Below, one piece after another: positions 4,271 through 61,910 of a stretch of 64,000 nt of DNA; within the stretch, counting starts at the first letter, position 1, and every line of letters starts with the position of its first letter. The notes under the pieces are model-generated. The model saw only the letters and a list, made by a program, of their open reading frames with translations, was not told the DNA's origin and searched no databases. This stretch comes from a virus (taxonomy: Duplodnaviria > Heunggongvirae > Uroviricota > Caudoviricetes), in IMG/VR virus record IMGVR_UViG_3300045988_145627, positions 1-64,000 of that record. One strand, 5' to 3'. The position numbers and the translations under genes are program-made.

Positions 4271-4296
4271 GTAAGTAATTATCTAAGGTTATTCAA

Positions 4297-5871
4297 ATGG
4301 AATTGAACGACAAACAAATTAAGGATCTGGTGGCGCGACGCCACCCGGAATACGAAAAGAAAAAAGAACATTGGGACTTCCTCGCCAGCACTTACGCTGG
4401 CGGGCGTGGTTGGTTTACAGACAATATCTTTCGTTACTTTAAAGAGGGAGATCAGGAGTTTAAGGAGCGAGTTGAACGTGCTTATCGCTTTAACCACACT
4501 CGTGAGGTGGTAAACCTCATCAACAAATATCTCTTTAAAGAAGACATTCATAGAAATATCGAAGAGGCACCAGAGCAGATCCGCAATTTCTGGAAACGTG
4601 CGACTCGCCAGAATGCCTCTATTGACTCATTTATGGCCGCTATTGATTTGCAGTCGTCTATTTACGGTCGCATATGGGTTGTTGTCGATAGCACGATGAG
4701 TGGTGATGTTGAGTCAGTAGCTGACGAGAAAAAGAAAGATGCTCGCGCCTACGCCTACTGGATTTCACCTCAGCAAATGCTGGATGTGGCATGGGACGAC
4801 GACGGGAATATGTTATGGGCGTTAATTGTGGAAGTCGCTCGCGATGACGCAGATCCTTTTACTTCTACAGGTCAGGAATACCAACGTTATCGTCTGTGGA
4901 CACAAAACGAGTGGTATCTGTTCCGTGAGGAAGTGAAGAAGGGCGCTGGTGGAGCAGGTCGCCGTCAGGCAAAAGTTATTTTAGAGGATAGCGGTGAGCA
5001 TAATCTCGGCGTAGTTCCTGTGTTTCCTGTTGATTGTATTGGAGAAAGTGAATCACCGTATTTCAGCCCATCGTTGATCGATGATATCGCTTATCTTGAT
5101 CGTGCGGTTGCAAACTATCTGTCAAACCTTGATGCCATTATTCAGGATCAGACATTTAGCCAGTTGGCTATACCAGTACAGTCGCTTTTACCTGGTGATG
5201 AAAACCACACTAAAGTGCTTGAAATGGGCACAAAGCGAGTCTTCACCTACGATTCTGAAGGTGGAAACCAGCCGTTTTATCTGTCACCAGACCCGAAACA
5301 AGCTCAGATGATCATCACTACGATTAAGACGGTGATTAACGAAATCTACCATTCAGTTGGTGTAGCTGGTGAGCGAACGAAGCAGGACAACGCACAGGGA
5401 ATCGATAACTCATCTGGTGCCGCAAAAATGTATGACTTCCAGCGTGTAAATAGCTTGCTTGTCACAAAAGCAGAGCGTCTGGAAAGGGCTGAACGCCAAA
5501 TCATGCTACTGGTTGCGAAATGGATGGGGGTAGATCTGGACGAAGACCACTCTTTAATTGCGTATCCAGAAAGTTTCGATATTCGTGGCCTTACTGATGA
5601 ATTTTCTGTTGCCGAGAAACTGTCATTACTTCAGGCACCGGACTCTGTACGTCGTCACCAGATGGAAATGCTTATTGAGAAGATTTTCCCGAACATTACT
5701 GAGGCGATGAAAAAGGAATTTGATAAAGATCTCTTGAATTTTCCTCCAAAAAATGATCTAAATACCCTTGAAAATAAGTCATCACTTACTTATGATCGTG
5801 GTGCAGCCCAAGAAAGCGGGCAAGATCAACCCCGAGGGAATGGGGACTCATCTACTCAAGAGAACGAGTGA
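4297..5871 (+). CDS. portal protein (putative)
   Basis: 524 aa ORF directly after terL with RBS aagg; size and position typical. Confidence 0.65.
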   Translation: MELNDKQIKDLVARRHPEYEKKKEHWDFLASTYAGGRGWFTDNIFRYFKEGDQEFKERVERAYRFNHTREVVNLINKYLFKEDIHRNIEEAPEQIRNFWKRATRQNASIDSFMAAIDLQSSIYGRIWVVVDSTMSGDVESVADEKKKDARAYAYWISPQQMLDVAWDDDGNMLWALIVEVARDDADPFTSTGQEYQRYRLWTQNEWYLFREEVKKGAGGAGRRQAKVILEDSGEHNLGVVPVFPVDCIGESESPYFSPSLIDDIAYLDRAVANYLSNLDAIIQDQTFSQLAIPVQSLLPGDENHTKVLEMGTKRVFTYDSEGGNQPFYLSPDPKQAQMIITTIKTVINEIYHSVGVAGERTKQDNAQGIDNSSGAAKMYDFQRVNSLLVTKAERLERAERQIMLLVAKWMGVDLDEDHSLIAYPESFDIRGLTDEFSVAEKLSLLQAPDSVRRHQMEMLIEKIFPNITEAMKKEFDKDLLNFPPKNDLNTLENKSSLTYDRGAAQESGQDQPRGNGDSSTQENE

Positions 5872-5892
5872 TAAGTAACAAAAGGAATTTTT

Positions 5893-6780
5893 ATGAATCT
5901 GTGGCAAATGCTTTTGGCCCGTCGTGGTCTGATGGATGTCGCTGAAGCGCATGAGCGTGGAGGCGCTGGCGGTGTAGCTGCTGATAATGAGCAGAGTACA
6001 CAAGATCCTGACAAACAGGGTGAACAAAAAGAGCAGCCGAAGGGCGATGACGAATACGCTGGCATGACTCAGGAAGAGTTACTGGCCGAACTTCGTAAAA
6101 CCAAGAAAGCTGGTGCTGAACTGCTGAAGGAGAACATGAAGCGCAAAGAGAAAGAGCGCACATTGGCCGATCAGCTTGCTCAGTACGGTGATATCGATCC
6201 GGCTCGTGCTCGCCAGCTTTTAGAAGCTGAACAGGCCGCAGAAAACGCACGTCGTGAGGCGGAGCAAGCTGAACTGGAGCGTCGTGGTGAGTTCGATGCT
6301 GTTAAAAAACAGATGATCGAAGCACACCAGGCAGAGCTGGCACAGCGTGACGAACGTTATGCAGCACTGGAAAGTGAAAACGCATCACTGAAATCTCAAT
6401 TAGTCGAGATGACCGTGGGCGCTTCCTTCAGTAACTCTCTCTTCCTACGTGACAAAGTTCTGATGACCCCGGCAAAAGCCCGCGTGATCTACGGTTCTCA
6501 TTTTGAAGTGGGTGAAGACGGTAGCGTAGTGGGTTATGACAAACCGGCAGGTCATAAAGAACGAGCTGTTCTGGTTGACGGTGAAGGTAAGCCGTTGCCG
6601 TTTGAATCCGCGATTGAACGCATTGTGCGGGCAGATCCGGAAGCTGACGCATTGATGCGTAGCGAAGCCAAGCAGGGTGTAGGCTCACATTCCAAATCGA
6701 CCTACACAATATCCCAACCGAAGAACAAGTCGACTATGGATAAGTTGGCCTCCGGTCTGGGGAAAATTGGACTTAAGTAA
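5893..6780 (+). CDS. scaffolding protein (putative)
   Basis: Charged, coiled-coil-like composition (AELLKENMKRKEKER..., EAEQAAENARREAEQAELERR) between portal and capsid genes. Confidence 0.5.
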   Translation: MNLWQMLLARRGLMDVAEAHERGGAGGVAADNEQSTQDPDKQGEQKEQPKGDDEYAGMTQEELLAELRKTKKAGAELLKENMKRKEKERTLADQLAQYGDIDPARARQLLEAEQAAENARREAEQAELERRGEFDAVKKQMIEAHQAELAQRDERYAALESENASLKSQLVEMTVGASFSNSLFLRDKVLMTPAKARVIYGSHFEVGEDGSVVGYDKPAGHKERAVLVDGEGKPLPFESAIERIVRADPEADALMRSEAKQGVGSHSKSTYTISQPKNKSTMDKLASGLGKIGLK

Positions 6781-6805
6781 CATCTAAATCAAAGGGAATT
6801 GATAG

Positions 6806-7681
6806 ATGCCATTACTGCGTGAAGAAGCTGAAAAGCTGTCTAACAACGAACTTGAACAGGGTGTGATCGAAACTATCATCGATCGCGATGACCTGTTTGC
6901 CATCCTGCCTTTTATGAAAATTAATTCAAAGGCATATCTGTACAACCGTGAAAAAACGCTGAGTGAAGCTACCTTCATCGACGTTAACGACACCATCCCT
7001 GAAGGTGCAGCAACCTTCGAAGAATGCGTTGCGAAACTGCGTATTCTGGCTGGTGACGTAGACGTTGATAAATTCCTGGCGACCACTATGGCCGACACCA
7101 ACAACCAGTTGGCTATTCAGGTTCGTCAGAAAGTTAAAGGTCTGGCTCGTGCGTTCCGTCGCAACCTGATTTTGGGTGACTCCAGCTCCAACAACAAGGC
7201 GTTTGACGGCATTCCACGCCTGATGCACGCAGATCAGAAGATCGATATCGCCGGTGCATCTATGACTTTCTCTATGTTCGACGAACTGGTCGATGCGGTG
7301 AAAGATCTTGGTGCTGACTGCATCATGATGCGTTCAGAGCACCTGCGTGCTTACCGTGCGCTGCTGCGTACAGTAAACGTAGGTCCGTCTGAAATCATGA
7401 TGGAGAACTTCGGTCGTCCGATGCTGTGTCATAACGGCGTTCCGTTCATCATCAACGACTTCATCCCGACCGATTCTGGCAAAGCAAGCATCTACTGCCT
7501 GCATCTGTCAGAAGAGAACGGCGTTACTGGTCTGTATGGCGGCGACAACGCAGGTATCGTTGTTGAAAACATTGGTACTGTACAGAACAAAGACGCAGTA
7601 CGTACCCGTGTGAAGTGGTACTGCTCTCTGGCGAATAAGCACGATAAGGCTATCGCTGCACTGACCAATGTAAAAATTTAA
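6806..7681 (+). CDS. major capsid protein (putative)
   Basis: 291 aa ORF after scaffold with RBS aggga; position in head module. Confidence 0.55.
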   Translation: MPLLREEAEKLSNNELEQGVIETIIDRDDLFAILPFMKINSKAYLYNREKTLSEATFIDVNDTIPEGAATFEECVAKLRILAGDVDVDKFLATTMADTNNQLAIQVRQKVKGLARAFRRNLILGDSSSNNKAFDGIPRLMHADQKIDIAGASMTFSMFDELVDAVKDLGADCIMMRSEHLRAYRALLRTVNVGPSEIMMENFGRPMLCHNGVPFIINDFIPTDSGKASIYCLHLSEENGVTGLYGGDNAGIVVENIGTVQNKDAVRTRVKWYCSLANKHDKAIAALTNVKI

Positions 7682-7715
7682 TCAGTGTAGTAGATAAGTA
7701 GTTATCTATGTTAAA

Positions 7716-7746
7716 GGGTGGGCTATACGCCCACCCTTTTTGTAGG
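7716..7746 (+). terminator. intrinsic terminator
   Basis: GGGTGGGC-tatac-GCCCACCC followed by TTTTT. Confidence 0.6.
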
Positions 7747-7754
7747 AGCAAGAA

Positions 7755-8675: not shown

Positions 8676-8719
8676 TCAATATTGGGCGGCGAAAGCCGCC
8701 CATGTAGAGAGAATGCGTT

Positions 8720-10875: not shown

Positions 10876-10876
10876 T

Positions 10877-11260: not shown

Positions 11261-11334
11261 CTCAATTGGTAAGTATATACTTACTATTAGCGCAATGAAT
11301 GCGTAGAATTAACGGAAAAAGGAGTTTTCCATCA

Positions 11335-17413: not shown

Positions 17414-17749
17414 ATGGAAAGACAAACGTTTAATTGGTATCCAGATTACGAATCTGAAAAAAGCGTAAAACCGAATGTAACGGTACTTAATTTTGGTGAT
17501 GACTACGAGCAGCGACAGGCTCAAGGTCTTAATCGTATTAAAGAAGAATGGTCGTTAACCTTTACCAGATCATACAACGAAATTAATGCAATCGATGACT
17601 TCCTGACTGAGCGAGCAGGCGTTGAGTCGTTCTATTGGGTTAATCCAAGAGGAAAACGGATTGTAGTTGTATGTGACAGTCATACGGTCAAGCGATATCA
17701 GGGGTACGCAGTATTAACCGCTCCATTCAGACAAGTATTTGAGGCTTAA
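17414..17749 (+). CDS. minor tail protein (lambda gpM-like)
   Basis: 111 aa directly after tape measure gene; order M-L-K-I-J follows. Confidence 0.6.
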   Translation: MERQTFNWYPDYESEKSVKPNVTVLNFGDDYEQRQAQGLNRIKEEWSLTFTRSYNEINAIDDFLTERAGVESFYWVNPRGKRIVVVCDSHTVKRYQGYAVLTAPFRQVFEA

Positions 17750-17831
17750 GTATCTGGATAAGTAAGTACTAATTTACTATCATTGTGGCGCTGACAGGAT
17801 GTTAGCGCCTACTTATTTCAAGGATGAAACA

Positions 17832-28777: not shown

Positions 28778-28979
28778 TTTAGACATTATTTATATGGCTG
28801 TGAGGTTTAAAATGCGATCTCACAGCCGCAATCATAGGGATATATTAGTGAGTTACTAGATACGAATTTGAACAGCCGTTAAACGGCATATGCATAGATA
28901 GGTAAGTATATACCTATAATTGAAAGGAGAAGTGTGATATAAATCCGCCATCCCGATTTGACTTTTCATGGAGGAAAAC

Positions 28980-31742: not shown

Positions 31743-31887
31743 AACAGCCATTGATTCTCGCCTAAAAATTCTAAGGCAGCACCTACCATTTAACCTTTAC
31801 ACCGCAGCCGTAGGCATTTAGGCTATATCACATATAAGAAAACAAGTTGTTTCAGACAATAATAATAGACGCAAAGGGAACTCTCCA

Positions 31888-34142: not shown

Positions 34143-34197
34143 CCTGTTTCTGTATATAAATAATAAGTAACTTATTAAATATATATACGGAAGCAGG
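34143..34197. promoter_or_regulatory. 55-bp imperfect palindromic element, copy B
   Basis: Near-identical to 2211-2265. Confidence 0.6.
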
Positions 34198-34314
34198 TCT
34201 TTTAAAAGACACCCACCAGAACAACTCCCTTCCGTTTCCACTTCCAAAAACTGCCACCAGTCGCTATCATCCGCTCATTGTGATAAGTAAGTAACTACCT
34301 ACTAGGTGAGCCAC

Positions 34315-35055: not shown

Positions 35056-35098
35056 CTAATACTAGAAAACAATTTGTTTAAAAAACAAAGGAAAGCAC

Positions 35099-36439: not shown

Positions 36440-36448
36440 AAAATAAGC

Positions 36449-38731: not shown

Positions 38732-38912
38732 TTTTGGATTTTCACAAGATGGTTAGGTGGTTGTGGCTACTCGGTGTAAGGCTTTGTAATCACCGATTGG
38801 TAAGGTTACTTCAATTTAGCTTAACTGTCAGCATACCCAATCGCCGAAAAGATAAGTAGATGATTACTTATTAGTGTGTAAGAATACTGCCATCTGTTAG
38901 CTAGGAGTTGGT

Positions 38913-39695
38913 ATGAAAGACGAAATTCAGAAATTAGCCTGCGACATCATTGATAAAACTGGTTTAGAAATCAGCGAGAGCAATCGGCTAGACATCATTG
39001 AAAAAGCCGTCAATACGGCAATGGATCATATCGCCACTCGTTTAGTCGAGATCCCGCTACCGGGGCTACCTTATCTGAAGGTTAAGTTGCGCGTATGGGG
39101 CGAACCTGCACATGCACGACGTTCTGCATTAGTTGTTTTTGTACGCAAAGAAAACTTACGAACTCTAAAAGTGCAGGTTGGGGCGTGGTTTGATGGCAGA
39201 GTCATCTATACAGATACCATTATCTGTCCTCCAGGTGACGAACATATTGAAGCCGTCATTCGAGAATCAATTCGAGCTATGCGCAGTTTAGCTTTGCTGG
39301 AAGACAAGCAAAACTTTGAAGATTACTTGCTGTCGGTAAAAGCTGAACCAACATTGTCTCTGAAAGCCGATTTCGTCACCCCGACAAATCTGTTGGAGGT
39401 TTTGATTAATAAAGGGGCTAATGATGCTGTAAACCTAATCAGGGAGAGCGAATATTCGACTCTTTGCGACATGTGCAAAAGCCAGTTGGATCTTGTGCAT
39501 ATCATTGTTGATGCGGGGAAGGCGTGTGATGGCGTAATGGCGGAATTTGCTGGGAAGATGGTCAGGATTGCTAACGAATTACCGATGATAGAGCAAGAGG
39601 CCAAATCATACGCCACCAATCATGTCACAGAGCTTCTTGCCCCCTATCGCTTAGAAAGCGATCAGCGCAAGATGATTAGCTGGGGAAGTTGGTAA
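38913..39695 (+). CDS. hypothetical protein
   Basis: 260 aa ORF with RBS aggag. Confidence 0.45.
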   Translation: MKDEIQKLACDIIDKTGLEISESNRLDIIEKAVNTAMDHIATRLVEIPLPGLPYLKVKLRVWGEPAHARRSALVVFVRKENLRTLKVQVGAWFDGRVIYTDTIICPPGDEHIEAVIRESIRAMRSLALLEDKQNFEDYLLSVKAEPTLSLKADFVTPTNLLEVLINKGANDAVNLIRESEYSTLCDMCKSQLDLVHIIVDAGKACDGVMAEFAGKMVRIANELPMIEQEAKSYATNHVTELLAPYRLESDQRKMISWGSW

Positions 39696-39762
39696 GCTCT
39701 CTGTGTGTCGTTTTTTACGCAAATAATGATAGGTAAGCACAAGATTATTTCTGGCGGTAATT

Positions 39763-40233
39763 GTGAAAGCTGATTTGTCAAAAATCCCTTCTATTTCAGG
39801 AAATAACGGTTATTCACTTCGTTGTGAGGAAGTAAAGATAAACGGTGAGTCGGCATATTGCAGCTATTCCGTTTGCCAGCACACCATTCTTGCCTTCAAA
39901 GAAAACCGTCTTCCTCGAACTTCTTTCCAGTCGTGCGCAACCGCTATTAAAGCAGGCAAATGTAAGGCGTTAAAAATGATGGTTGAAGAGATTCGTAAAG
40001 GAGAATCTCTGTATTTCGCAGATATGACCGCACTCATTAAGGAGGTTGAAGAACGGAATAAACAAGCCAGATCTATAAAACGAAAACGTGACAGTGTAAC
40101 GATTAATAGCATGGTTAAGAAGAGCGCCACATCACAAACAGCGATCACTGACGTGTATGCGGCGTTGCTTGAAGAAACAACAAAAGAAACACATGAGCAA
40201 ATCGATCAACATATGGAGGCAAAACAACAATGA
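39763..40233 (+). CDS. hypothetical Cys-containing protein
   Basis: GTG start; N-terminal Cys cluster C..C..C....C; stop overlaps ligase start. Confidence 0.4.
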   Translation: MKADLSKIPSISGNNGYSLRCEEVKINGESAYCSYSVCQHTILAFKENRLPRTSFQSCATAIKAGKCKALKMMVEEIRKGESLYFADMTALIKEVEERNKQARSIKRKRDSVTINSMVKKSATSQTAITDVYAALLEETTKETHEQIDQHMEAKQQ

Positions 40234-41552
40234 AAAAGTTGATCGCACTTAAGCATAAGCTGGACGAAATGAAAGCTATGGGAACCAATGCAAAAAAAGA
40301 GGCATTGGCCAACATGGATGACTTTGAACAAAGCATGGTTTCATTGATGCTCAACCCTTTCATCCGTTTTGGGGTAAAGAAATACAAAGTGGCAGAGCCG
40401 CTTAGTGAGTCCGTCCCAAGTGACGAAAAAGCCATTGATGTACTGAATAAGCTGGCCTCTCGCGAGCTGACGGGGAACGCAGCAATAGCTGCTGTTGAGT
40501 CTATCGTGGCGTCAATGTGCGCCGATGGGCAGGACGTGTTCCGTCGTTTCCTCTTAAAAGACCCGAAAGCGGGTGTTGGGATTAGCCTATGCAACAAGGT
40601 TTTTGAAAATCCCATTCCGAAATTCGAGGTGCAGCTGGCGTCACCGTATAAAGAAAAAGGCGACAAATACCCCTTCAAGCCAAACCCTAAAGCAAAATGG
40701 CCGATGATTGGCAGCCTTAAGCTCGATGGTTTGCGAGTAATTTGCGAGGTTATTGTTGACGAAGAAGAGGTTAACTTCCTTTCTCGTACTGGTAATCCAA
40801 TCACGTCTCTCGATCACCTAAAGCCAGCCATGCTCGAATTAGGCAAACTTTCAGGCCACAAACACATCTTCTTCGATGGTGAAGGCACAGCCGGTTCATT
40901 TAACCAGTCCGTATCTGCATTGCGCAAAAAGAACGTGCAGGCAATTGGCGCTATTTATCATGTTTTCGACTTCTTCCTACCGGAATGGCGAGCACAGGCT
41001 AAATCCAAAGAGTATGCAAAGACATGTATGAAGCTGAAAGAGCGCCTGGCTATGCTCGTGGCGTTGTTCAAAAACGATCGCAGTGAAGGCTACGCACAAG
41101 ACATTCACCTGCATCCGTTCTACATCATCCATAGCCACGAAGACTTCATCGAACGCTTCATGAAACGCCTGGACGATAACGAAGAAGGGGAGATGGGCAA
41201 AGATCCGAACTCTGTTTACGAGTTTAAACGTACCCGCAGCTGGTGGAAGTTAAAAGACGAAGATTCAGAAGATGGTGAAATTATCGATTTTGAGCCGGGC
41301 GACCCGGACTCTGGTTTTGCCAACACGCTTGGAAAAATTGTTATTCGTCTTGAAAACGGCGTCATCGTTCGTGCGAGCGGCATTAAGCATAAATATCTGG
41401 ACGAGATCTGGAACAACAAAGAGAAGTACCGTGGTCGCATTGTCGAGGTTCATTGTCACGAGAAAACACCTGATGGCAGCTTACGCCACCCACGACTGAA
41501 ATGGCCGCGTTGCTTACGCGATACCGAAGATCGAATCGGAGATAAAGAATGA
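40230..41552 (+). CDS. ATP-dependent DNA ligase (phage type)
   Basis: Adenylation motif KLDGLR, FFDGE, WWKLK, C-terminal LRHPRLKW. Confidence 0.8.
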   Translation: MKKLIALKHKLDEMKAMGTNAKKEALANMDDFEQSMVSLMLNPFIRFGVKKYKVAEPLSESVPSDEKAIDVLNKLASRELTGNAAIAAVESIVASMCADGQDVFRRFLLKDPKAGVGISLCNKVFENPIPKFEVQLASPYKEKGDKYPFKPNPKAKWPMIGSLKLDGLRVICEVIVDEEEVNFLSRTGNPITSLDHLKPAMLELGKLSGHKHIFFDGEGTAGSFNQSVSALRKKNVQAIGAIYHVFDFFLPEWRAQAKSKEYAKTCMKLKERLAMLVALFKNDRSEGYAQDIHLHPFYIIHSHEDFIERFMKRLDDNEEGEMGKDPNSVYEFKRTRSWWKLKDEDSEDGEIIDFEPGDPDSGFANTLGKIVIRLENGVIVRASGIKHKYLDEIWNNKEKYRGRIVEVHCHEKTPDGSLRHPRLKWPRCLRDTEDRIGDKE

Positions 41553-41764: not shown

Positions 41765-41910
41765 TTCCATACATCTCATTGGCTTTTATGGCTGGCTTCC
41801 TTATCGGCTTCGGCATCTGTCGTGATTTGATTAAGCAGGAACTTAAAACCAAAACACTGTGCATCGGGAAGCGTGTGTATCGGGTAGTTCATGAAACAAA
41901 GGTGAGAACA
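41761..41910 (+). CDS. small hydrophobic protein (49 aa), putative
   Basis: ATGA overlap at both ends; below track size cutoff; hydrophobic MIPYISLAFMAGFLIGFGIC. Confidence 0.3.
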
Positions 41911-42200
41911 TGAGCAATTTAACTTCTTGGGACTGGTGGTTGGTACACTATTTCTTAGCGGCCGGAGTCGCATTCGCCTTTTACGTAGGTCAGTTAGTCG
42001 TAAAACTGTTGCTGATTAAATTTGCTAGTCATAAACGTATCGATGATGGTCTGTGGCGTCTTGGCACCCTGGTGGAAACTCGCTACGGGCAACTTAAGGA
42101 GAACGAAACCATTACTATCCAAGCGAAACGATTCACTGCCACCATCACAAGAACACCTAGTCGTAGAGTGGCCTTGATCAAAAAAGTCACAACCGAATAA
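41910..42200 (+). CDS. small membrane protein
   Basis: N-terminal TM WWLVHYFLAAGVAFAFYV. Confidence 0.35.
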   Translation: MSNLTSWDWWLVHYFLAAGVAFAFYVGQLVVKLLLIKFASHKRIDDGLWRLGTLVETRYGQLKENETITIQAKRFTATITRTPSRRVALIKKVTTE

Positions 42201-42978
42201 AAACACAAAGATAAGTATTTACTTACTTATCTTTTATGTATAAGATGACTTTGTTTTCGTTGAGACGCGACTGTTTGAACTTAAATACAAGTGCAAACGA
42301 AGAAGTCTATCTGGCAGTAGCCTAATAAGCCAAACACCAGCGAGGTCAGTTTCCAGCCTCGTTACCGAAATGGGACACACTGAGCGAGTGTGATTGCAGA
42401 ACGCAGGAGGGAACATTCATGTTCCCTCCGATGAAGTAACAGAATGGGCGGTTGGTATATTTTCAACTCCATATGACTCCCGGATTCTTAGCCACTGACC
42501 GCCCATCCTGTTACGTCATTTTGTTCAATTATGTCGTTTATACTGGGTTAAAAAGCGGCGACGTAGCCCGGCTGGTATGGTTAGCCAGCACACAACGTTG
42601 AGGCCATTACATTTTTATTAATTCTAAGGTTCTATTCACAGAGATACCGGCGAGCGTTGATATGTAACATGTTGGGCAAACATTCAATCGGAGTAGTGGC
42701 CTCAACGTTGTGAAGACAGGATTGTTGTGTAGGTTTAACCACTGTTGCCATTGGTGCCTGTTTTCACAACAAATGATTCCATACATCACATTGTATAAAT
42801 TACAAAGTAGGTGCTGTCCTCAGAAACATCATCTACTTAAAGATTTTGCCTTCTACTATTGAGCGAAGTCGAAAGCGTCTGGCACTAACGAAAAGTGCAA
42901 GTAGCGGTGCGTTTCCTGGCAGAAACTAAACCGTCGCGATTGGCACTGTTGAGTAATAAATACTGGCAGTGCCGAATT

Positions 42979-43053
42979 GATGGTGTAGCTCAGCGGTAGA
43001 GCAGTTGGCTGTTAACCAACTGGTCGGTGGTTCGAATCCGTTAACCGGCACCA
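42979..43053 (+). tRNA. tRNA-Asn(GTT)-like, non-canonical T/acceptor stems (possible pseudogene or fragment)
   Basis: Canonical D arm GCTC-AGCGGTA-GAGC, anticodon arm GTTGG-CTGTTAA-CCAAC, T loop TTCGAAT, 3' CCA; T and acceptor stems need wobble pairs and mismatches. Confidence 0.45.
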
Positions 43054-43266
43054 ACACAACAGGAAAGAGCATTGAGAACCGCCGAGACTGCACTGTTTGA
43101 AGCGTAAGTCCGTGCAAACGTCATACAGTGCTCTTTTCGTTGTGGTGAATGCGGCTAAGCGCACGCGGGGAAATGGTTATATTGATCCTTTGTGATGTCT
43201 ATTGGCTCCGTCCACGGTGGATAACCAGCCAAAGGACACCGGGAAGCACCCGGCACCATAACAATT

Positions 43267-43353
43267 GGAGAGTAGGGAGCATGGTGCTCAAGCGGTCTTG
43301 AAAACCGTCCCATTGCGCAAGCGATGATGGTTCGATTCCATTACTCTCCGCCA
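43267..43353 (+). tRNA. tRNA-Ser (anticodon TGA), type II with long variable arm
   Basis: Acceptor GGAGAGT/ACTCTCC, anticodon loop CTTGAAA, T arm GATGG-TTCGATT-CCATT, 3' GCCA. Confidence 0.8.
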
Positions 43354-43508
43354 GACACAGCGTTGAGCGGTTTGGCCTTTTAATCAACTCGATTAAGACT
43401 CCGCTAACATAAACCAGACCGCTCAACGCTGTGATAGACAATTACGGCAGACGTTCTTAACCATAGCTTGCTAACATCCTAGCAACACTTTTTTTCAGCG
43501 CAAAATTC

Positions 43509-43532
43509 AAAGGGGCTTCGGCCCCTTTTTTG
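43509..43532. terminator. bidirectional intrinsic terminator
   Basis: AGGGGC-ttcg-GCCCCT flanked by A-run upstream and T-run downstream; between convergent tRNA locus and minus-strand gene. Confidence 0.7.
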
Positions 43533-43548
43533 AAAGCAATGGGCAAGT

Positions 43549-44883
43549 TCATGCCAAATTATCCAGATTTCTTTTCTTTTGTTCAATTATATTTCTCGCG
43601 CCAGAAAAAATTTTACTCAAAATAATTGATTTGCTTGCTCTATTATTAAGATGTAACAACGCGCTATAAAATACATAGTTATCTATTTTACTATTTAAAG
43701 TATTCCCAAGCTTCCCGTCATATATGCTATTAATAGTATTAAAATATACATGTTCAGGACCTATATTACAAATACCCCTATCAACTCGCTTTAAATAATG
43801 TTTAACTAAAGAAATAGCATCTTCCTTATCATTAATAACATAAAGTCCTGAGCGTTTACCCAGTTTGCTGTTCGAGAGCAATTTACAACCTACAAGCTCA
43901 CTTAACGTATCTTCAAAATTTTTCAACTCTTTGTCGGCGTTTTCCAGATAATGCTCAATCTCTTTCTCCATATTACTTATTAGAGAATTAAATTCTGCTC
44001 GTAACAAATCACCACCAGGTGATTTATAACTCCATAAAATTGAATTGGTAATACGTACTACGTCAGATACTTCTGGTTTCTCTGAATAGTTTTTGTATCT
44101 AGTGCAAATAATGCTGTGCTTTATATATTCTCTAACTAATGATCGATAATCCCTTTCGAAAAGGGTTTTGACATCTAGTCTTCCATTGCTTGTTGTTATT
44201 AGTGTGGTATTTAAAACTGGGTCGCCTTCAAAAAAATTATATTTATTTAGTAATCGTTTTAGCTTGTGTGAATTATGTGATGTTTCGCCATAATAATTTA
44301 GCCCAAAAATAGCAATTATTAGCATAACATCAGGAGTGATGAAATGTCGTAATTGCTCGGCATAAACTTTTTTCTCTTCGATTTTCGAAGATGGAGAGTA
44401 AAAACCTTTGTCTATATATTCTAATATTGAAACAATATTACTAACATAACGTATAAAAACTTGATTCATTACAACGGAACCATAAACCTGATGCAAATAA
44501 TCTACTCTCAAGTTGTTTTTTATTTTTTCCCCTGTGCTAGATGATAACTCTTCTTTTACCTGCCCAAGTAGCTTTTCGTGGTGCTCCAGCAATGTTTTAA
44601 ACCATTGTTCAAATGATGATTTTCTTGCCTCAGTTAATGAATCTGATGTTATCTGGACAGCTTTCATAGCTGCTTTCGCACTTTTCTTTGCTTCATAAGC
44701 GTTCCATGCTGTAGCACAAAAAGCTGCCGCCGTGATGCAACTGGTAAAAATAGAAATCCTATCTGCAACATTCAAGCTCCAGAACCAATCAGACGATGAA
44801 ATCAAAACCACAGATATTACGGGAACAATGAAAATCAAAACAGGCATGTATGTACTCGCTCTAATAGTTATTAGTCGAGGCAA
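43549..44883 (-). CDS. A+T-rich membrane-anchored protein of unknown function (candidate exclusion/abortive-infection factor)
   Basis: 444 aa; N-terminal TM helices (MPVLIFIVPVISVVLISS, ISIFTSCITAAAFCATAW), large soluble C-terminal domain; composition differs visibly from flanks. Confidence 0.55.
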   Translation of the reverse strand: MPRLITIRASTYMPVLIFIVPVISVVLISSSDWFWSLNVADRISIFTSCITAAAFCATAWNAYEAKKSAKAAMKAVQITSDSLTEARKSSFEQWFKTLLEHHEKLLGQVKEELSSSTGEKIKNNLRVDYLHQVYGSVVMNQVFIRYVSNIVSILEYIDKGFYSPSSKIEEKKVYAEQLRHFITPDVMLIIAIFGLNYYGETSHNSHKLKRLLNKYNFFEGDPVLNTTLITTSNGRLDVKTLFERDYRSLVREYIKHSIICTRYKNYSEKPEVSDVVRITNSILWSYKSPGGDLLRAEFNSLISNMEKEIEHYLENADKELKNFEDTLSELVGCKLLSNSKLGKRSGLYVINDKEDAISLVKHYLKRVDRGICNIGPEHVYFNTINSIYDGKLGNTLNSKIDNYVFYSALLHLNNRASKSIILSKIFSGARNIIEQKKRNLDNLA

Positions 44884-45025
44884 ATATTATATAAATCTCG
44901 TTATGATTTACAGACATGTATACGTATTGCTAATTATCACCAACAAATGATAGGTGTGTACATATTTATCATTTGTTGTAAAATTAATGTATACGCTATG
45001 AATACACTAATAATATGAGGTAATC

Positions 45026-45271
45026 ATGACTATCGTTATCTACGGACGAGATAACTGTTCATACTGCAAACGTGCGGTCGAGCTGGCGAAGCAACTAAAG
45101 GGACATGGCTACGGTGATTATGAGTACATCGACATCACCACTGCTGGTATCGACAAGGAAAAACTTAGTGAAATTGTTGGTAAACCGGTAGAGACTATCC
45201 CCCAGGTACTGATCGATGGCCAACCGATTGGCGGATACACAGAACTGGCTGCATACGTCAGCACCCTCTGA
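45026..45271 (+). CDS. glutaredoxin-like protein (NrdH/Grx)
   Basis: CSYC active-site motif near N-terminus, about 80 aa; RBS gaggt. Confidence 0.8.
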   Translation: MTIVIYGRDNCSYCKRAVELAKQLKGHGYGDYEYIDITTAGIDKEKLSEIVGKPVETIPQVLIDGQPIGGYTELAAYVSTL

Positions 45272-45276
45272 TTTTA

Positions 45277-45300
45277 ACGGCTCACAGGAGCCGTTTTTTA
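45277..45300 (+). terminator. intrinsic terminator
   Basis: CGGCTC-acag-GAGCCG followed by TTTTTT. Confidence 0.7.
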
Positions 45301-45482
45301 TTCCCACCAAACTCACACCTGTTTCCCTTAAAATTCAAAAAACAACATCTAAATGATTCCATACCTACTATGTATGGAATCATTACTGAAAATGAGTTAC
45401 TTTTACTCTTGATCCTATAAGAATCTATGCCTAATATACTGTTTACTTATACAGTGCATCGGCGTAACTCGGTGATTGTCAT

Positions 45483-46586
45483 ATGAAAAATAGCTTTGAC
45501 AGAGCACGCGCTGCGGAGAACACCTCAAAAGAGGCGATTGAGTATCTCGAAAGAGCATCTCAAATGCAGGCCGTTATGATCTCCCAGGTCAGCAATGACA
45601 TGAGATTCTCGGACGCATTCATGTTATTCACTCGCTTATCTCTGCTGATAACAAGACGTCGGCCAGAGATCGCTGTTCATTGTATTTTGATACATGTTTT
45701 GCCGCACATTGCCGATGTAAAAGTAAGTGATATTAATAGGTTCATGGTGAACCAACTGGTCAACCCACTAATACTGGATGGCAAAATTGTTATGGGTCGC
45801 CGCGTTTTCTCTCTGATGAAGCAGTTCCTCAGCTGGTGCGCCTTCCAGGGGATGATCGACGTGTCACCGTTAAACGATATGTCACTTAACAAAGTTGCCG
45901 GTGGCGCAAAGCCCACACCTCGCGAGCGGAAGCTAACCGACGCAGAGGTATGGGTGTTCTGGAATATATGGGACTACTTCAATGTGTGTGCTGGTACAAA
46001 ATGGGCGGCCAGGCTATGTCTTGTATCCGCAAGACGACCTGACGAAGTACTGCGGGCTAAAAAAAGTGAGTTCAACCTCCAGCGTGGGGTTTGGAATCAA
46101 GGCAAGAGAAACAAATCAGCCCGTGAGCATTCTCTGCCTTTAAGCACATTAATGCGCACATGCATTGAAGAGTTATTCGAATATGGTAAAGGCAGCCAGT
46201 GGCTTGTGCCTTCGAATAAAAAAATCGGGAAAGATCTTCCGATGTCTAAAGTGGCAATAGCCCAGGCATTACGCCGTATCCTGGAACGACCAGAACTGAT
46301 GGAGCTTGAGCCATTTACACCACGAGATTTGCGTCGTACTGCGCGTAGTTACTTCCCAGCATTAGGCATAAGCCAGGAGGTATCACGTAAAATCATGAAC
46401 CACAGTCTTGAGGGGATAGATCGGGTCTACGACCGGCACGATTATATGGACGAGATGCGAGACGCCTTAGAAAGTTTCTCGACGTACATCGCATCAATCG
46501 TAGAGCAACCGGATTTAGACGAAATTGACCACAAATTCAAGGGAGATCGTCTATCGACAGAGCTTATTCGTGTAAATTTTTCATAG
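45483..46586 (+). CDS. tyrosine recombinase (integrase/resolvase family)
   Basis: C-terminal catalytic region with RRPDE..., FTPRDLRRTARS, NHSLEG..RVYDRHDY (Tyr nucleophile context). Confidence 0.7.
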   Translation: MKNSFDRARAAENTSKEAIEYLERASQMQAVMISQVSNDMRFSDAFMLFTRLSLLITRRRPEIAVHCILIHVLPHIADVKVSDINRFMVNQLVNPLILDGKIVMGRRVFSLMKQFLSWCAFQGMIDVSPLNDMSLNKVAGGAKPTPRERKLTDAEVWVFWNIWDYFNVCAGTKWAARLCLVSARRPDEVLRAKKSEFNLQRGVWNQGKRNKSAREHSLPLSTLMRTCIEELFEYGKGSQWLVPSNKKIGKDLPMSKVAIAQALRRILERPELMELEPFTPRDLRRTARSYFPALGISQEVSRKIMNHSLEGIDRVYDRHDYMDEMRDALESFSTYIASIVEQPDLDEIDHKFKGDRLSTELIRVNFS

Positions 46587-46967
46587 AGACTTTATGGCCT
46601 CAACAACCTTTTGTGATGCGCCTTTCTCTTTACCGAATCGCTCGTTATATGCAGCAAGAACCTGTTTTTCGTCCTCGTTAAGAGGAGCAGTGCCTTCTTT
46701 GTATAAAAATGCTGCGAGTTCGGGTTGGCGTTCTTCCAGCACCATCATCATAAGACGACTTGGCTCAATACCCAGTGCCAGCGCCAGCGGACGAACCTTA
46801 TCGATAGGCAAAGGAATTTTGCCGCTTTTAATTAAAGAAAGGTTGTTGGCGTTTTTATACCCAATTGTTTTGGCTATCTGGGCCTGGCTCATAGGTGAGG
46901 ATTCAATCAACCCTGCGATAAAAGCAGCGTAGCGACTTTCTATAAATTCAATCTTGTTGTCAGACAT
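46581..46967 (-). CDS. XRE-family HTH transcriptional regulator (repressor-like)
   Basis: HTH MSQAQIAKTIGYKNANNLSLIKSGK; divergent from downstream plus-strand operon. Confidence 0.7.
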   Translation of the reverse strand: MSDNKIEFIESRYAAFIAGLIESSPMSQAQIAKTIGYKNANNLSLIKSGKIPLPIDKVRPLALALGIEPSRLMMMVLEERQPELAAFLYKEGTAPLNEDEKQVLAAYNERFGKEKGASQKVVEAIKSL

Positions 46968-47218
46968 TGTTACAACCTTTGCGCGTTCAATTCTCTCTGG
47001 TAAGTGCTTACCGATATTACATCAAAGGTTAGGGTTGTAAAGCTATTATCATTTTTTTCGGCAGGCACTTTAAAGACCGGACAAAGACCAATGCATGGTG
47101 AAAAACTAGCCCCAAATAGGTAAGAAAATTAACTTGCATCTAATATGGATGTATTCAGTATTGATATAAATTTTAGTAGTATTCCTTACAATAGTATAAG
47201 TAAGAATGGATTGATTGA

Positions 47219-47431
47219 ATGAACACCACTATTTCCAGCCTAATAGCTCTTGAGATCGGACACGTACAAAAATTAGCTGATGAGTGTGTAGCTGACATCC
47301 TCACCGAGCTACCGAATGAGCAGATTGAGGTTGGTGTGAATGACACAACTGGCTTTATATTCGAACTTAACAACAAACGCTTCACGCTTATCAATACCGG
47401 CTCCGGGTCTTTAGCCGTCAGAACCTGTTAA
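47219..47431 (+). CDS. hypothetical small protein
   Basis: 70 aa ORF in divergent promoter region. Confidence 0.3.
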   Translation: MNTTISSLIALEIGHVQKLADECVADILTELPNEQIEVGVNDTTGFIFELNNKRFTLINTGSGSLAVRTC

Positions 47432-47529
47432 TCCCTCTTCTACCTGCGCGAATGGCTTAGTTCCCTGTTCGCGCAGTGCTACATTAAACACACTAGTAAA
47501 TAATTTGTTTTCATAACAAAGGATTAGCC

Positions 47530-49638: not shown

Positions 49639-49733
49639 TTAGAATAGCCTTAATGATAAGTAATCACTTACGATATTTGATGGTATATTTATATAAGAAG
49701 TTGAAAGCTCATTAGAAAACAAAGGAAAAACGC

Positions 49734-54836: not shown

Positions 54837-54841
54837 TTTGA

Positions 54842-56400: not shown

Positions 56401-56517
56401 TTTTTGATAGATAATAAGTAAGTACTGATCTATCATTTAACAGCTCGAAAGAGCCACGAATGAACGAAAGCCCAACGCGCATAGCGCCATCGGCCAAATC
56501 ACAACAAGGAGAAACAC

Positions 56518-57546: not shown

Positions 57547-57562
57547 TCCCATTACGTGACCA

Positions 57563-57591
57563 GTAAGGCGTCTACGGACGCCTTACTTTTT
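57563..57591 (+). terminator. intrinsic terminator (GGCGTC/GACGCC family)
   Basis: GTAAGGCGTC-tacg-GACGCCTTAC followed by TTTTT. Confidence 0.65.
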
Positions 57592-57606
57592 GGAAGGAAT
57601 GTACCG

Positions 57607-58551: not shown

Positions 58552-58817
58552 TGCTTAAATCGATTATCAATGGCGCTACAACCACCCCTGCCCAACTGGC
58601 AAAAGAGATTGTCTTTTATCACGGTGAGTACGCTGTCATCGCACTGCCGTCAATTCTAGGCGCTGCCGGAATGAAAGCGACAGATCGCGAGTTTGGATTA
58701 GTCAGCGAGCAGGTCGTAAAAATCCTCGCTCGTGTATCCAGACTCCTTAACCACGATGCGATTGTATTCGATGAATCCGCCGCTTTAAAACGAATCAACG
58801 AAACAAAAGGAGCCTGA
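58545..58817 (+). CDS. hypothetical protein
   Basis: 90 aa, start overlaps exonuclease stop. Confidence 0.35.
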   Translation: MLMLKSIINGATTTPAQLAKEIVFYHGEYAVIALPSILGAAGMKATDREFGLVSEQVVKILARVSRLLNHDAIVFDESAALKRINETKGA

Positions 58818-58819
58818 TC

Positions 58820-59893: not shown

Positions 59894-59898
59894 ACACA

Positions 59899-59923
59899 AG
59901 GCGTCCACAGGACGCCTTTTTTA
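59899..59923 (+). terminator. intrinsic terminator (GGCGTC/GACGCC family)
   Basis: AGGCGTCC-acag-GACGCCT followed by TTTTTT. Confidence 0.75.
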
Positions 59924-59985
59924 TCTCTTGAAAATATATAAGCACTTACTTATTATTTTCGCATAACAACCACATAGGAAAACAC

Positions 59986-60186
59986 ATGATCAAAATCTAT
60001 CTATTGGCAGTAGCCACAGGCCTTTCAGTGGCTCTCATCTACGGTTTACTGGTTCCGTCGCTGATTTCTACCAAGAGTGATTTAGCCGTCATGTTTGGAG
60101 TTATCGTTGGTTTTGGTGCTCCTGTAATCGGTCTTATTGCTGGTCGTAAGTTTATCAACTCATTAATCAAAGCAAAGGGGAAATAA
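59986..60186 (+). CDS. small two-TM membrane protein with basic C-terminus
   Basis: IYLLAVATGLSVALIYGLLV and VMFGVIVGFGAPVIGLIAG helices, C-terminal RKFINSLIKAKGK. Confidence 0.45.
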   Translation: MIKIYLLAVATGLSVALIYGLLVPSLISTKSDLAVMFGVIVGFGAPVIGLIAGRKFINSLIKAKGK

Positions 60187-60189
60187 GTA

Positions 60190-61020
60190 ATGAAGAAAGG
60201 TTTACTTGCAGTTGCTCTGGCGGCTATTTGCACAATGGGTCTTACTGGCTGTGATCGCGTGGAGCCTGGATACGTTGGCATCAAAGTAAACAAATTAGGT
60301 GAAGACAAAGGGATTGGTGAAGTGGTTGGCGTTGGTCGCCAATGGACAGGTCTTAACACCGAACTTTACGTATTCCCGACCTTCAAACAAATGAAGACCT
60401 ACGACGAGCCGTTCACATTCCAGATGAGTGACGGTACTGCTATTGGTCACAAAATTGGCGTTGCGTATCTGGTTAATCGTGACAAGGTAACGACGGTGTT
60501 CCAGACCTATCGCAAAGGCGTAGACGATATCACCGAATCAGATCTGCGTCAGAAAATTGCCGACTCTCTAAACCGTTTGGCCAGCCGTATGACCACTGAC
60601 TCATTTATCGACGGTGGTAAGGCACAATTGCTGGACAACGCACTGAAAGATATTCAGAAAGAGATGTCTCCGGTTGGTATTGAGGTACTGAGCCTGTCAT
60701 GGGTTGGAAAGCCTGATTACCCAAAAACTGTCATTGAATCTATTAACGCCAAAGTAACGGCTAACCAGCGTACTCTGCAACGTCAGCAGGAAGTTGAACA
60801 ACGTAAAGCTGAGGCGAATATGCTACGTGAACAGGCTAATGGTGAAGCTGATGCTATCCGTGCTCGTGCGCAAGCAGAAGCAGACGCCATTCGTCTGCGC
60901 GGTGAAGCTCTGCGTCAAAACCCGAACGTTATGGAACTGGAAGCCATCAATAAATGGAATGGCCAGTTACCGCAGTACATGACTCAAGGGGCTAACACTC
61001 CTTTCATTACAGTGAAATAA
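60190..61020 (+). CDS. SPFH/Band-7 domain lipoprotein
   Basis: Lipoprotein signal ...MGLTGC; SPFH-like VEPGYVGIKV start; C-terminal coiled coil QRKAEANMLREQANGEADAIRARAQAEADAIR. Confidence 0.65.
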   Translation: MKKGLLAVALAAICTMGLTGCDRVEPGYVGIKVNKLGEDKGIGEVVGVGRQWTGLNTELYVFPTFKQMKTYDEPFTFQMSDGTAIGHKIGVAYLVNRDKVTTVFQTYRKGVDDITESDLRQKIADSLNRLASRMTTDSFIDGGKAQLLDNALKDIQKEMSPVGIEVLSLSWVGKPDYPKTVIESINAKVTANQRTLQRQQEVEQRKAEANMLREQANGEADAIRARAQAEADAIRLRGEALRQNPNVMELEAINKWNGQLPQYMTQGANTPFITVK

Positions 61021-61036
61021 CTCCCCTAAAAAGTTC

Positions 61037-61062
61037 AGGCGTCCAGTTGGACGCCTTTTTTA
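61037..61062 (+). terminator. intrinsic terminator (GGCGTC/GACGCC family)
   Basis: AGGCGTCCA-gt-TGGACGCCT followed by TTTTTT. Confidence 0.75.
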
Positions 61063-61111
61063 TCGCAATTATCTTATTAAGAAAACAATTTGTTTAAAAG
61101 AATAAGAAAAC

Positions 61112-61537
61112 ATGACAGCTATTAAGAAACTCTACGATGCCGCAAACGTGGCTCTGGATGTTATTGATGATGAAGCAGCAAAAGGCTTTCCTGAACCTGA
61201 TTGGGCGCATCAGCTACGAAACGCTATCGCCGAAATGAATCCACCAGATCCGAGCACCGACGAGACAGACTGGCAGCGATTTATCCGTATGTACGCTCAG
61301 GAAATAGGTCCAACGCCAACGGCAGAGCAAGCAATGCTGCTGAAATACTTCAAAGAGGCGGGAGAGGATTTACCAATTGATGACTCAGCATATTGGTTCC
61401 ACTGCGCATGGCGTAAGTATGACGTGATATTCACACAAGGCATGGGGAGCAAAGATATGGTTGTGTGGCATCTACTCCATATAGACACAGCCGTTGACAG
61501 AGTTATTGAACAGTTTTTCCCTAAACAAGAAGATTGA
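61112..61537 (+). CDS. hypothetical protein
   Basis: 141 aa ORF preceded by AAACAATTTGTTT palindrome. Confidence 0.4.
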   Translation: MTAIKKLYDAANVALDVIDDEAAKGFPEPDWAHQLRNAIAEMNPPDPSTDETDWQRFIRMYAQEIGPTPTAEQAMLLKYFKEAGEDLPIDDSAYWFHCAWRKYDVIFTQGMGSKDMVVWHLLHIDTAVDRVIEQFFPKQED

Positions 61538-61592
61538 TCGCCTATTCATAACTAACAAAATAAGTAAACACTAACCACAAAAGGAAAAACAC

Positions 61593-61868
61593 ATGAGAGT
61601 TTTAGTTCGAATCGTTACCAGCACTGTCTATGACGTGTTTCCGCTTTTTATGGTCAAAGCCGATGGCCTTAACGACGAAGAAACTGACGCGCTGATCCAG
61701 CGTATTCTCGTTGAATATACAGGTCATGACGCTGATTCAGTGATGGTTGATGATGATGGTGTTTGTTGGCATAACGGCAACTGTTGGTACGTAGAAGAGA
61801 CTCAACAAATCAGTGATGAAGATGCCGCACATCTTGAGCGTATTTTAAGCATCAGCACTTTTGAGTGA
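61593..61868 (+). CDS. hypothetical acidic protein
   Basis: 91 aa ORF with RBS aaagga. Confidence 0.4.
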   Translation: MRVLVRIVTSTVYDVFPLFMVKADGLNDEETDALIQRILVEYTGHDADSVMVDDDGVCWHNGNCWYVEETQQISDEDAAHLERILSISTFE

Positions 61869-61910
61869 GTTTACAGTAAATTTATATAAATAAGTTAGTA
61901 TCTACCTATC

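Follow-up and report, generated by a model that had tools for sequence, protein, structure and literature searches.

Dispersed TAAG palindromes in an SSU5-like phage-plasmid as candidate operators of its own XRE-type repressor

Introduction

Why should one short palindrome recur in gap after gap along a phage genome? The question is raised by a stretch of 64,000 nucleotides from a tailed virus (Caudoviricetes; IMG/VR record IMGVR_UViG_3300045988_145627, positions 1 to 64,000; its full length is referred to below as the window), in which an earlier note had described a family of TAAGTA-centred inverted repeats in intergenic gaps and had suggested that they serve as a phage-specific promoter, operator or RNA-processing signal. 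The window, an SSU5-like phage-plasmid of Escherichia coli, shares 96-99% identity with E. coli plasmids and with the phages CMS-2020a, PhiR41_1 and Cyrano, and about 80% with Salmonella phage SSU5. We determined that the palindromes are real and confined to intergenic DNA. With a probability of roughly 55%, we consider them to be operators of the phage's own XRE-type immunity repressor, some lying within promoters and others being roadblock-like.

Enrichment of the palindromes in intergenic DNA

All 14 positions listed in the earlier note bear the sequences described there (Table 1), and a further good member, beyond that list, was found within the 3' end of the portal gene (5772-5793); weak palindromes are those at 61881-61910 and at an added site, 61560-61574. 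Searching the window for the 14-mer TAAGTAnnTACTTA with at most one mismatch yielded nine matches as compared with 0.10 expected, a number that none of 100 dinucleotide shuffles reached, and all nine are wholly intergenic in a window of which about 7% is intergenic. The hexamer with the highest intergenic enrichment is TAAGTA (19 copies in 4.4 kb of gaps versus 8 in 59 kb of coding sequence). Taken together, TAAGTA and TACTTA occur 27 times in the gaps, as against 4.8 +/- 2.3 times in dinucleotide-shuffled intergenic DNA, and their density is 6.18/kb in gaps and 0.30/kb in coding sequence. Since coding windows matched for A+T content reach only 0.84/kb, the motif is not equally frequent in such sequence, which the earlier note had named as the finding that would tell against it. 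Intergenic motif clusters number 16 in the window and 28 in SSU5.

Architecture of the element and its probable action at the DNA level

In four genomes, the arms ATA[AG]GTA and TAC[CT]TAT were found at spacers of 2, 6 and 10 nt only (76, 59 and 27 matches, versus 0-9 at any other spacer), and the element can therefore be written as (TA[AG]G)n TA nn TA (C[CT]TA)n, a DNA palindrome of 4-nt-phased units having a TA step every 4 nt. The family consensus, located at the junction of TerL and the portal gene, is the perfect 22-bp palindrome GATAGGTAAGTACTTACCTATC, with GATAGGTAAGT and ACTTACCTATC on the two sides of its centre; the window's copy at this junction (4268), which shares bases with both the stop codon of TerL and the Shine-Dalgarno sequence of the portal gene, has this 22-mer as its ortholog in relatives. 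Within the consensus, a type I core, GGTAAGnnCTTACC (TAAG-N2-CTTA), lies between two overlapping type II 14-mers, TAAGTAnnTACTTA (TAAG-N6-CTTA). Type II geometry is found in most lytic sites of the window, while the site at 46999-47012 has the N2 spacing. As the (TAAG)n units are phased by 4 nt, every one of the six frames of the element contains a stop codon, and it supplies the end of several genes.

The symmetry extends to the flanks: of 70 sites, 40 have a TAnnnT hexamer at the right end and 44 have one in the mirrored position on the left. A fixed -10 hexamer counted from the last TA of the 14-mer, with about 70% T at hexamer position 6, was rejected because the mirrored flank has the same pattern; the apparent hexamer is thus an extension of the palindrome. 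An iterative scan of both strands with a position weight matrix converged to a symmetric model, to which no orientation could be assigned.

The proposal of an RNA-processing signal was not borne out. Among 48 sites, the plus strand folded better at 19 and the minus strand at 26, energies were mostly weak (0 to -7 kcal/mol), A.C mismatches between the arms (23) were as common as G.T (18), and a search of Rfam returned no family match for the motif, a tRNA being the sole report. The site at 42209-42232 folds at -11 kcal/mol on both strands. A sense-strand RNA hairpin, prompted by apparent G.T covariation at 4268 and 7691, was rejected on account of the strand-symmetric energies and the equal A.C counts. 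Also rejected was the possibility that downstream GC hairpins are 5'-terminal stem-loops set by the motif, as their distances vary (9.5, 14, 16 and 21 nt) and bear no fixed relation to it; a convincing promoter-to-hairpin layout was seen at the 56406 site only. The evidence favours an element that acts at the DNA level rather than as RNA. There is some likeness to host factor and related sites, namely NarL heptamers (TACYYMT), the Fur box and the P22 c2 half-site, which we take as leads only, the arrangement or spacing being different.

Relation of the palindromes to sigma-70 promoters

The motif fills the 17-bp spacer of three conserved sigma-70 promoters (5768-5796, 56408-56436 and 59928-59956). 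In the first of these, both hexamers are invariant in all clades and the spacer sequence changes but stays palindromic, and an Asp-to-His codon change preserves TAnnAT; promoter and palindrome appear to have shaped the C-terminal residues of the portal protein encoded there (L-E-N-K ... T-Y-D/H). The promoter at 59928-59956 is conserved in all clades that have the downstream genes. The one at 56408-56436 is conserved as well, with a GCTC-GNRA-GAGC hairpin 8 nt on, at which its transcripts would be predicted to begin. In the gap at 61869, most relatives have TTTACA-N17-TAGTAT with the motif over -10/+1.

The hairpin beyond the 56408-56436 promoter opens a conserved leader of about 80 nt (56437-56517) in front of the gp32-like ssb gene. 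Its loop is GAAA, GCAA or GTGA, and the leader, which also contains a second GC hairpin, is reminiscent of the autoregulated T4 gene 32 leader.

Overall, sigma-70-like matches are depleted in the window relative to dinucleotide shuffles (8 vs 20.6, 22 vs 30.5 and 24 vs 32.7), which suggests selection against spurious promoters. Despite this depletion, two of the four plus-strand matches of 10 out of 12 positions, plus three of the 9-of-12 matches, fall on motif sites.

The promoter proposed in the earlier note therefore survives in part: conserved sigma-70 promoters enclose at least three of the sites, without the motif being a promoter in itself. The copies at 4268, 7691 and 42209 leave no room for one, a terminator comes straight after the motif at 7691 and at SSU5 5471 and 67775, and some copies are located 2-11 nt from a start codon. 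At 7691, the arms vary between clades while the adjoining terminator is invariant. A promoter module would be expected to hold a fixed position; as the position relative to -35 and -10 is variable and some copies lack a promoter, the sites are better understood as operators.

A candidate repressor and its promoter

The candidate trans-acting repressor is the 128-aa product of 46581-46967, which matches PHROG_8 (1.3e-11) and the helix-turn-helix (HTH) family HTH_19 (8e-4). Modelled by AlphaFold2 from its single sequence (predicted local distance difference test score, 74), it has a five-helix XRE fold, the best matches being Stl, C.AhdI and the N-terminal domains of 434 and lambda cI, with probabilities of 0.9-1.0 and weak E-values of 0.08-0.7. 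According to this model, the protein has an XRE/Cro-CI-type HTH fold. The Cyrano homologue has been described as a putative master repressor and is expressed in an LF82 lysogen (PMC9928086).

The predicted promoter of this gene has invariant hexamers and a variable spacer, and the core GGTAAGnnCTTACC (46999-47012) is located at about +1, right after the -10. We found TTTACA-N16-TAATAT-C-[GA][GA]TAAG[CT]ACTTACC in 78 of the 78 relatives for which the upstream region was captured, their repressors being 58-100% identical, and in most clades a degenerate second copy lies over the -35. The E. coli and Klebsiella repressors are 55% identical; between them, the switch region has diverged and the promoter/operator block is conserved. 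A small divergent, cro-like gene is kept beside the repressor gene, and no DNA-binding domain was detected in its product. Scanning about 30 small or minus-strand proteins with Pfam, PHROGs and NCBIfam for another regulator identified only the XRE-type repressor, an FljA-like protein (Flag1_repress) encoded outside the window and two ParB_N proteins.

Conservation among SSU5-like relatives

Conservation in related phage-plasmids, which the earlier note had put forward as a check, was confirmed: sites are present at orthologous gaps in SSU5, in Klebsiella pJN2-26 and in about 160 IMG/VR relatives (80 fetched around TerL and 80 around RecA). SSU5 contains 41 matches at no more than two mismatches versus about 1 expected, nearly all of them intergenic and at orthologous gaps. 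pJN2-26 has exact copies of the 14-mer GGTAAGTACTTACC both at its repressor promoter and in lytic gaps (5 matches versus 0.09 expected). The exact 20-mer consensus was found in only 26 IMG/VR stretches, all on large contigs, many of which are also in the TerL or RecA relative sets and are SSU5-like, and it had no match in the species-representative genomes. Scanning IMG/VR for the repressor-promoter pattern TTTACAAN{14,16}GTAATATC, which was aimed at divergent clades, proved too unspecific.

One clade (L071-L077) has ATAGGTGGTTAACTACCTAT in place of the standard inner sequence at the same positions. This variant fits a protein-binding site that co-evolves with its protein, not a host RNA-polymerase element, and it looks like a change of binding specificity.

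SSU5 (41776-42761, corresponding to window 42234-47500) is without the whole segment containing the integrase, the repressor and the cro-like gene. As the E. coli and Klebsiella relatives have this segment, SSU5 resembles a deletion derivative that lost its immunity region; it behaves as a lytic phage.

Weighing the operator reading against its alternatives

What argues for operators is that the element is a mirror-symmetric palindrome of double-stranded DNA whose position relative to -35 and -10 varies, that its core lies on the repressor's own promoter and that one clade has a variant of its own. Under this reading, the protein encoded by 46581-46967 would bind the sites and repress transcription. 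In the plasmid-prophage state, it would curb its own synthesis via the copy at about +1 of its promoter (46999-47012) and silence the lytic sigma-70 promoters that have the palindrome as spacer or over -10/+1 (5768-5796, 56408-56436, 59928-59956 and 61870-61901). On the promoter-less intergenic copies (4268, 7691 and 42209), it could stop read-through as a roadblock, a role suggested by the analogy with mycobacteriophage stoperators. A more far-reaching version, which we regard as possible but doubtful, is that SSU5-like enterobacterial phage-plasmids possess a genome-wide, stoperator-style silencing network, in which about 20-25 symmetric palindromes per genome would answer to one small XRE-type repressor, the non-promoter copies would be bidirectional roadblocks at cassette boundaries that also provide six-frame translation stops, and one flexible protein would read both the N2 and N6 spacings.

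Several observations weigh against the operator reading. The half-sites have two spacings, TAAG-N2-CTTA at the repressor promoter versus TAAG-N6-CTTA at most lytic sites of the window, a pair that a single rigid dimer would not be expected to accommodate; the sites may therefore be read by two proteins or in a more flexible way. SSU5 is without both the repressor and the cro-like gene, yet its sites are intact, either because the deletion is recent or, equally, because the sites have a function that is needed in lytic growth. A second intergenic palindrome family, AAACAAnTTGTTT, is present, so that at least one other regulator acts on the genome. Moreover, the fold search, which started from a single-sequence model, gave weak E-values, and no description of the regulation or lysis-lysogeny control of SSU5-like phages was found in the searchable literature.

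Could the palindromes instead be a phage-specific promoter module, an activator site that replaces -35 recognition at middle or late promoters, as the AAGTnACTT box does together with Lpa in phage P1? P1 late promoters (AAGTnACTT-N4-TAnnnT) share the AAGT/ACTT half-sites, a -35 element is missing at most sites, and about 60% of the sites have a TAnnnT hexamer at the gene-proximal end. The sites precede portal, tail, fibre, holin and DNA-metabolism genes and are scarce among the small early genes, where another, directional element dominates; they are also retained in the lytic phage SSU5. We nevertheless consider such a module fairly unlikely. TAnnnT is as frequent on the mirrored side (44/70), which makes the element directionless, its position relative to -35 and -10 is variable, and the promoters whose 17-bp spacer, the optimal length, it occupies already agree with the consensus at 10 of 12 positions and can do without an activator. 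Copies with a terminator straight after them, or only 2-11 nt from an ATG, do not suit a promoter either, and the copy at +1 of the repressor promoter suits repression, not activation. No Lpa homologue was identified by tblastn or phmmer in the window, SSU5, Cyrano 50-100 kb or pJN2-26 1-50 kb, although a very remote homologue could escape these searches. That the operators serve a different or additional phage protein, such as the 70-aa cro-like product of 47219-47431 or another regulator, with N2 and N6 sites perhaps read separately, we hold to be quite unlikely. The spacing classes being 4 bp apart, their division between the repressor promoter and most lytic sites, the persistence of the sites in SSU5 without the repressor and the conservation of the cro-like gene beside the repressor gene all point in this direction; but in Klebsiella, lytic gaps and the repressor promoter share an identical 14-mer, the two geometries are interleaved in the 22-mer consensus, and the cro-like gene, in whose product no DNA-binding domain was detected, is also missing from SSU5.

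The two remaining explanations fare less well. An RNA hairpin in polycistronic transcripts, serving processing, stability or translational control, would account for the many copies that lie within operons just 3' of stop codons, for arms that pair through G.T (e.g., TAGGTAA/TTATCTA at 4268 and SSU5 5471) and for arms that change between clades as A-T, G.T and G-C. It is very unlikely, however, given that the sense strand folds no better than its complement, that folding is weak at most sites, that A.C mismatches are as common as G.T and that no Rfam family matches; in addition, the promoter-spacer copies lie upstream of the transcription start, the repressor-promoter copy serves a minus-strand gene, and the palindrome centre moves by 4 nt between sites. 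Hardly credible in our view is the absence of any regulatory role, with the sites being recombination linkers at module boundaries or insulators with stop codons in six frames. While (TAAG)n places stops in three frames and its palindromic partner extends this to the other strand, the motif's TAA or TAG serves as the stop codon of several genes (4268, 5872, 17747; SSU5 41774) and the strongest copy (42209) borders the variable region, the conserved G and the palindromic partner at fixed phases are unnecessary for stop codons, the copies on the repressor promoter and in promoter spacers would be left unexplained, and the single traceable cassette gain or loss (59986-61020) ends in a duplicated terminator, not in TAAG sites.

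Genomic context and other elements

The sites and the neighbouring features of the window are listed in Table 1, in which the gene layout was read off the Cyrano annotation.

Table 1. Palindromic sites, promoters and gene modules of the window
Feature	Position	Strand	Remarks
55-bp long palindrome, copy 1	2211..2265		~120 nt upstream of terS; not counted as member
Terminase, head, tail, fibre genes	2382-28777
Palindrome TAGGTAAGTAATTATCTA	4268..4285		Between TerL (stop TAG within motif) and portal gene, 11 nt before portal ATG; no promoter fits
Sigma-70 promoter TTGAAA-N17-TATGAT	5768..5796	+	Portal gene 3' end; 10/12 matches; spacer palindrome ATAAGTCATCACTTACTTAT (5774-5793)
Palindrome TAGATAAGTAGTTATCTA	7691..7708		3' of major capsid gene; intrinsic terminator 7716-7740 starts 8 nt on
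Perfect palindrome GTAAGTATATACTTAC	11269..11284		Before tail gene; then variable GC hairpin, Shine-Dalgarno; invariant in 51 relatives
TAAGTA at stop of 17414-17749 and site GATAAGTAAGTACTAATTTA	17747..17776		Sigma-70-like TGGATA-N17-TATCAT at 17755-17783
ATAGGTAAGTATTTACTTAA	24677..24696		Before tail-fibre gene; GC hairpin begins 2 nt on
ATAGGTA-AGTATA-TACCTAT	28898..28917		Before holin gene; perfect 7-bp arms, 0 mismatches in N6 geometry
Lysis genes	28968 onward
parA	31888
55-bp long palindrome, copy 2	34143..34197		~110 nt upstream of replication module
ATAAGTAAGTAACTACCTAC	34283..34302		Before replication-module gene at 34306/34315; ortholog SSU5 33605
Helicase, primase, ligase	35099-41552
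ATAAGTA-GATGAT-TACTTAT	38852..38871		Divergent gap, Sel1-repeat gene (minus) / gene at 38913 (plus); 0 mismatches; ortholog SSU5 38178
AGATAAGTATTTACTTACTTATCT, strongest palindrome of window	42209..42232		Ligase operon end, left edge of variable region; ortholog SSU5 41773
Variable region	42.2-47.5 kb		tRNA, integrase, putative repressor, small divergent gene
Integrase	45483-46586
XRE-type HTH protein, 128 aa, candidate trans-acting repressor	46581-46967	minus	Identical to Cyrano CYRAN_45
GGTAAGTGCTTACC, candidate autoregulatory operator	46999..47012		Directly downstream of repressor-promoter -10, about -5 to +9
Predicted repressor promoter	47041-47014	minus	TTTACA (47041-47036), 16-nt spacer, TAATAT (47019-47014)
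Small divergent, cro-like gene (70 aa)	47219-47431
cobT/cobS-like genes, dnaE, uvsY, gp32-like ssb, recA	Right of variable region
GATAAGTAATCACTTAC	49655..49671		Between cobT-like and cobS-like genes; ortholog SSU5 45125
GATAGATAATAAGTAAGTACTGATCTATC	56406..56436	+	Overlapped by promoter TAGATA-N17-TATCAT (56408-56436), upstream of gp32-like ssb
Sigma-70 promoter TTGAAA-N17-TATTAT	59928..59956	+	Right after terminator; 10/12 matches; spacer = ATATATAAGCACTTACT
Weak member ATAAGTAAACACTAA, left half only	61560..61574		3 mismatches
TTTACA, 20-nt spacer, TAGTAT	61870..61910	+	Motif TTAGTATCTACCTA over -10 to about +1; ATG at 61911
RepA iterons	Right end of window

The earlier note had placed the motif at the core of a duplicated 55-bp element. 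The words are indeed related, but the core TAAGTAACTTA (2231-2247 and 34161-34177) has a TAAG-N3-CTTA spacing that occurs in no other member, and this odd 3-nt spacing makes it a relative of the family at best. The element is a long imperfect palindrome, CCTGC...TATATAAATAATAAGT A ACTTATTAAATATATA...GCAGG, which is also present in SSU5 (~78300) and in PhiR41_1 (~13448), and may serve as a cruciform, an origin or a complex control region.

The directional intergenic element containing the palindrome AAACAAnTTGTTT was found at 2304-2341, 31840-31852, 35067-35079, 47498-47510 and 61083-61095, and SSU5 (L005/L006) has about 20 copies, mostly at 80-95 kb. Its layout consists of a -10 (GATAAT, TATTAT or TACATT, often with TGn), about 13 nt, the palindrome, a Shine-Dalgarno sequence and an ATG 13-36 nt on, which suggests a promoter class of its own whose operator or leader hairpin would lie at about +6 to +18. 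Among the small early genes, where there are few TAAG sites, this element predominates.

To the right of the 42209 site, the variable region contains the genes for a tRNA, the integrase and the repressor. The tRNA gene scores 52 bits in Rfam and adjoins a stretch that shares about 89% identity with the tRNA region of phage P1 (42979-43050 and 43130-43258). Near the right end of the window, the same terminator (GGCGTCC...GGACGCC-T6-ATC) occurs twice, at 59898-59925 and ~61040-61075. Some relatives (L182, L193 and L150) lack the two genes that the copies enclose (59986-61020) and retain only one terminator, and cassette gain and loss therefore seems to run through repeated terminators. About eight iterons, (T)ACCGCTGACAGCATAC, at 62635-63213 lie upstream of the RepA gene (63214-63990, minus strand); this stretch is the plasmid replication origin region.

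For two genes, the starts given by the longest open reading frames are probably wrong. In the tail gene, a conserved Shine-Dalgarno sequence, AACGGAAAAAGGAG, as well as the Cyrano and SSU5 annotations favour a later ATG (~11335) over 11299. In the minor-tail gene, the later ATG (~17836) is favoured over 17799 by SSU5 and an AAGGA Shine-Dalgarno sequence only, Cyrano being annotated at 17799. The earlier ATGs of both genes sit within hairpins. Upstream, terS is preceded by two ParB_N proteins. Outside the window, all SSU5-like genomes examined encode a protein with strong homology to FljA (Pfam Flag1_repress, 1e-68; L090 (PhiR41_1) 37192-37710, minus strand; SSU5_121), which may be a repressor of host flagellin; its gene is part of a minus-strand block that is conserved.

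Comparison with known systems and implications

Together with the P1 C1 regulon considered below, the closest functional analogues of the palindromes are the stoperators of Cluster A mycobacteriophages (L5, Bxb1), in which 20-30 copies of one short repressor site are dispersed genome-wide, mostly in short intergenic gaps, a few being true operators in promoters and most not being promoter-associated. One stoperator copy lies upstream of the repressor gene for autoregulation (PMC6550527), and D29 is a lytic deletion derivative that retains its stoperators (PMC5712189), a situation paralleled by SSU5, with the repressor lost and the sites kept. Stoperators, however, are asymmetric 13-14-bp sites that are bound by a monomeric two-domain repressor and have one orientation relative to transcription (PMC9283540, PMC6550527), whereas the sites described here are mirror-symmetric palindromes, for which a small XRE-type HTH protein is the candidate; a block of elongation would here be a prediction from the analogy.

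The C1 regulon of phage P1 likewise involves a plasmid prophage in which one repressor acts on operators that precede many lytic units and overlap sigma-70 promoters (P1 record annotation). Yet the C1 operators are asymmetric 17-mers of unrelated sequence, and P1 late genes are controlled separately via Lpa, while the palindromes here are also found within the structural-gene region. The Lpa-dependent late promoters of P1, with their -22 box AAGTnACTT, resemble the sites in having AAGT/ACTT inverted half-sites just upstream of a -10-like hexamer and in being numerous in the genome. Their half-sites are spaced by N1 as compared with AAGT-N0-ACTT or AAGT-N4-ACTT here, and the box is exactly 4 nt upstream of a TAnnnT -10 without a -35, whereas here the distance is variable and some sites have a perfect -35. 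In contrast to the P1 late box, the motif is mirror-symmetric and can sit inside complete sigma-70 promoters.

Three features that mark a repressor-operator family were found: a palindrome on the repressor promoter (78/78), the same site on lytic promoters and an HTH gene adjoining the operator. The Cro/CI operators of lambda, 434 and P22 share with this system a 14-bp palindrome on the repressor's own promoter, a divergent region with repressor and cro-like genes, and an XRE/Cro-CI-type HTH protein, but lambdoid operators are limited to the immunity region, whereas the same core recurs here at about 20-25 sites per genome. Dispersed palindromic operators at or near many promoters, serving coordinated repression, are known from the KorA/KorB regulon of the IncP plasmid RK2. 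KorB is a ParB-family protein; the ParB_N proteins of the present element have no demonstrated link to the motif.

Judged from its sequence features, the system is most likely a further case of a known type of phage regulation, differing by its symmetric sites and by a candidate repressor with a Cro/CI-type HTH. E. coli, Salmonella and Klebsiella commonly harbour SSU5/pHCM2-like phage-plasmids, which can carry resistance genes. For this group, our analysis supplies an operator sequence, a candidate repressor with its autoregulated promoter, three to four mapped lytic promoters and a list of sites, which may be of use for better annotation, for the prediction of immunity groups among phage-plasmids and for the design of induction-defective or constitutively lytic derivatives. 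If the non-promoter copies do act as roadblocks, stoperator-type silencing would extend beyond the mycobacteriophages and to symmetric sites.

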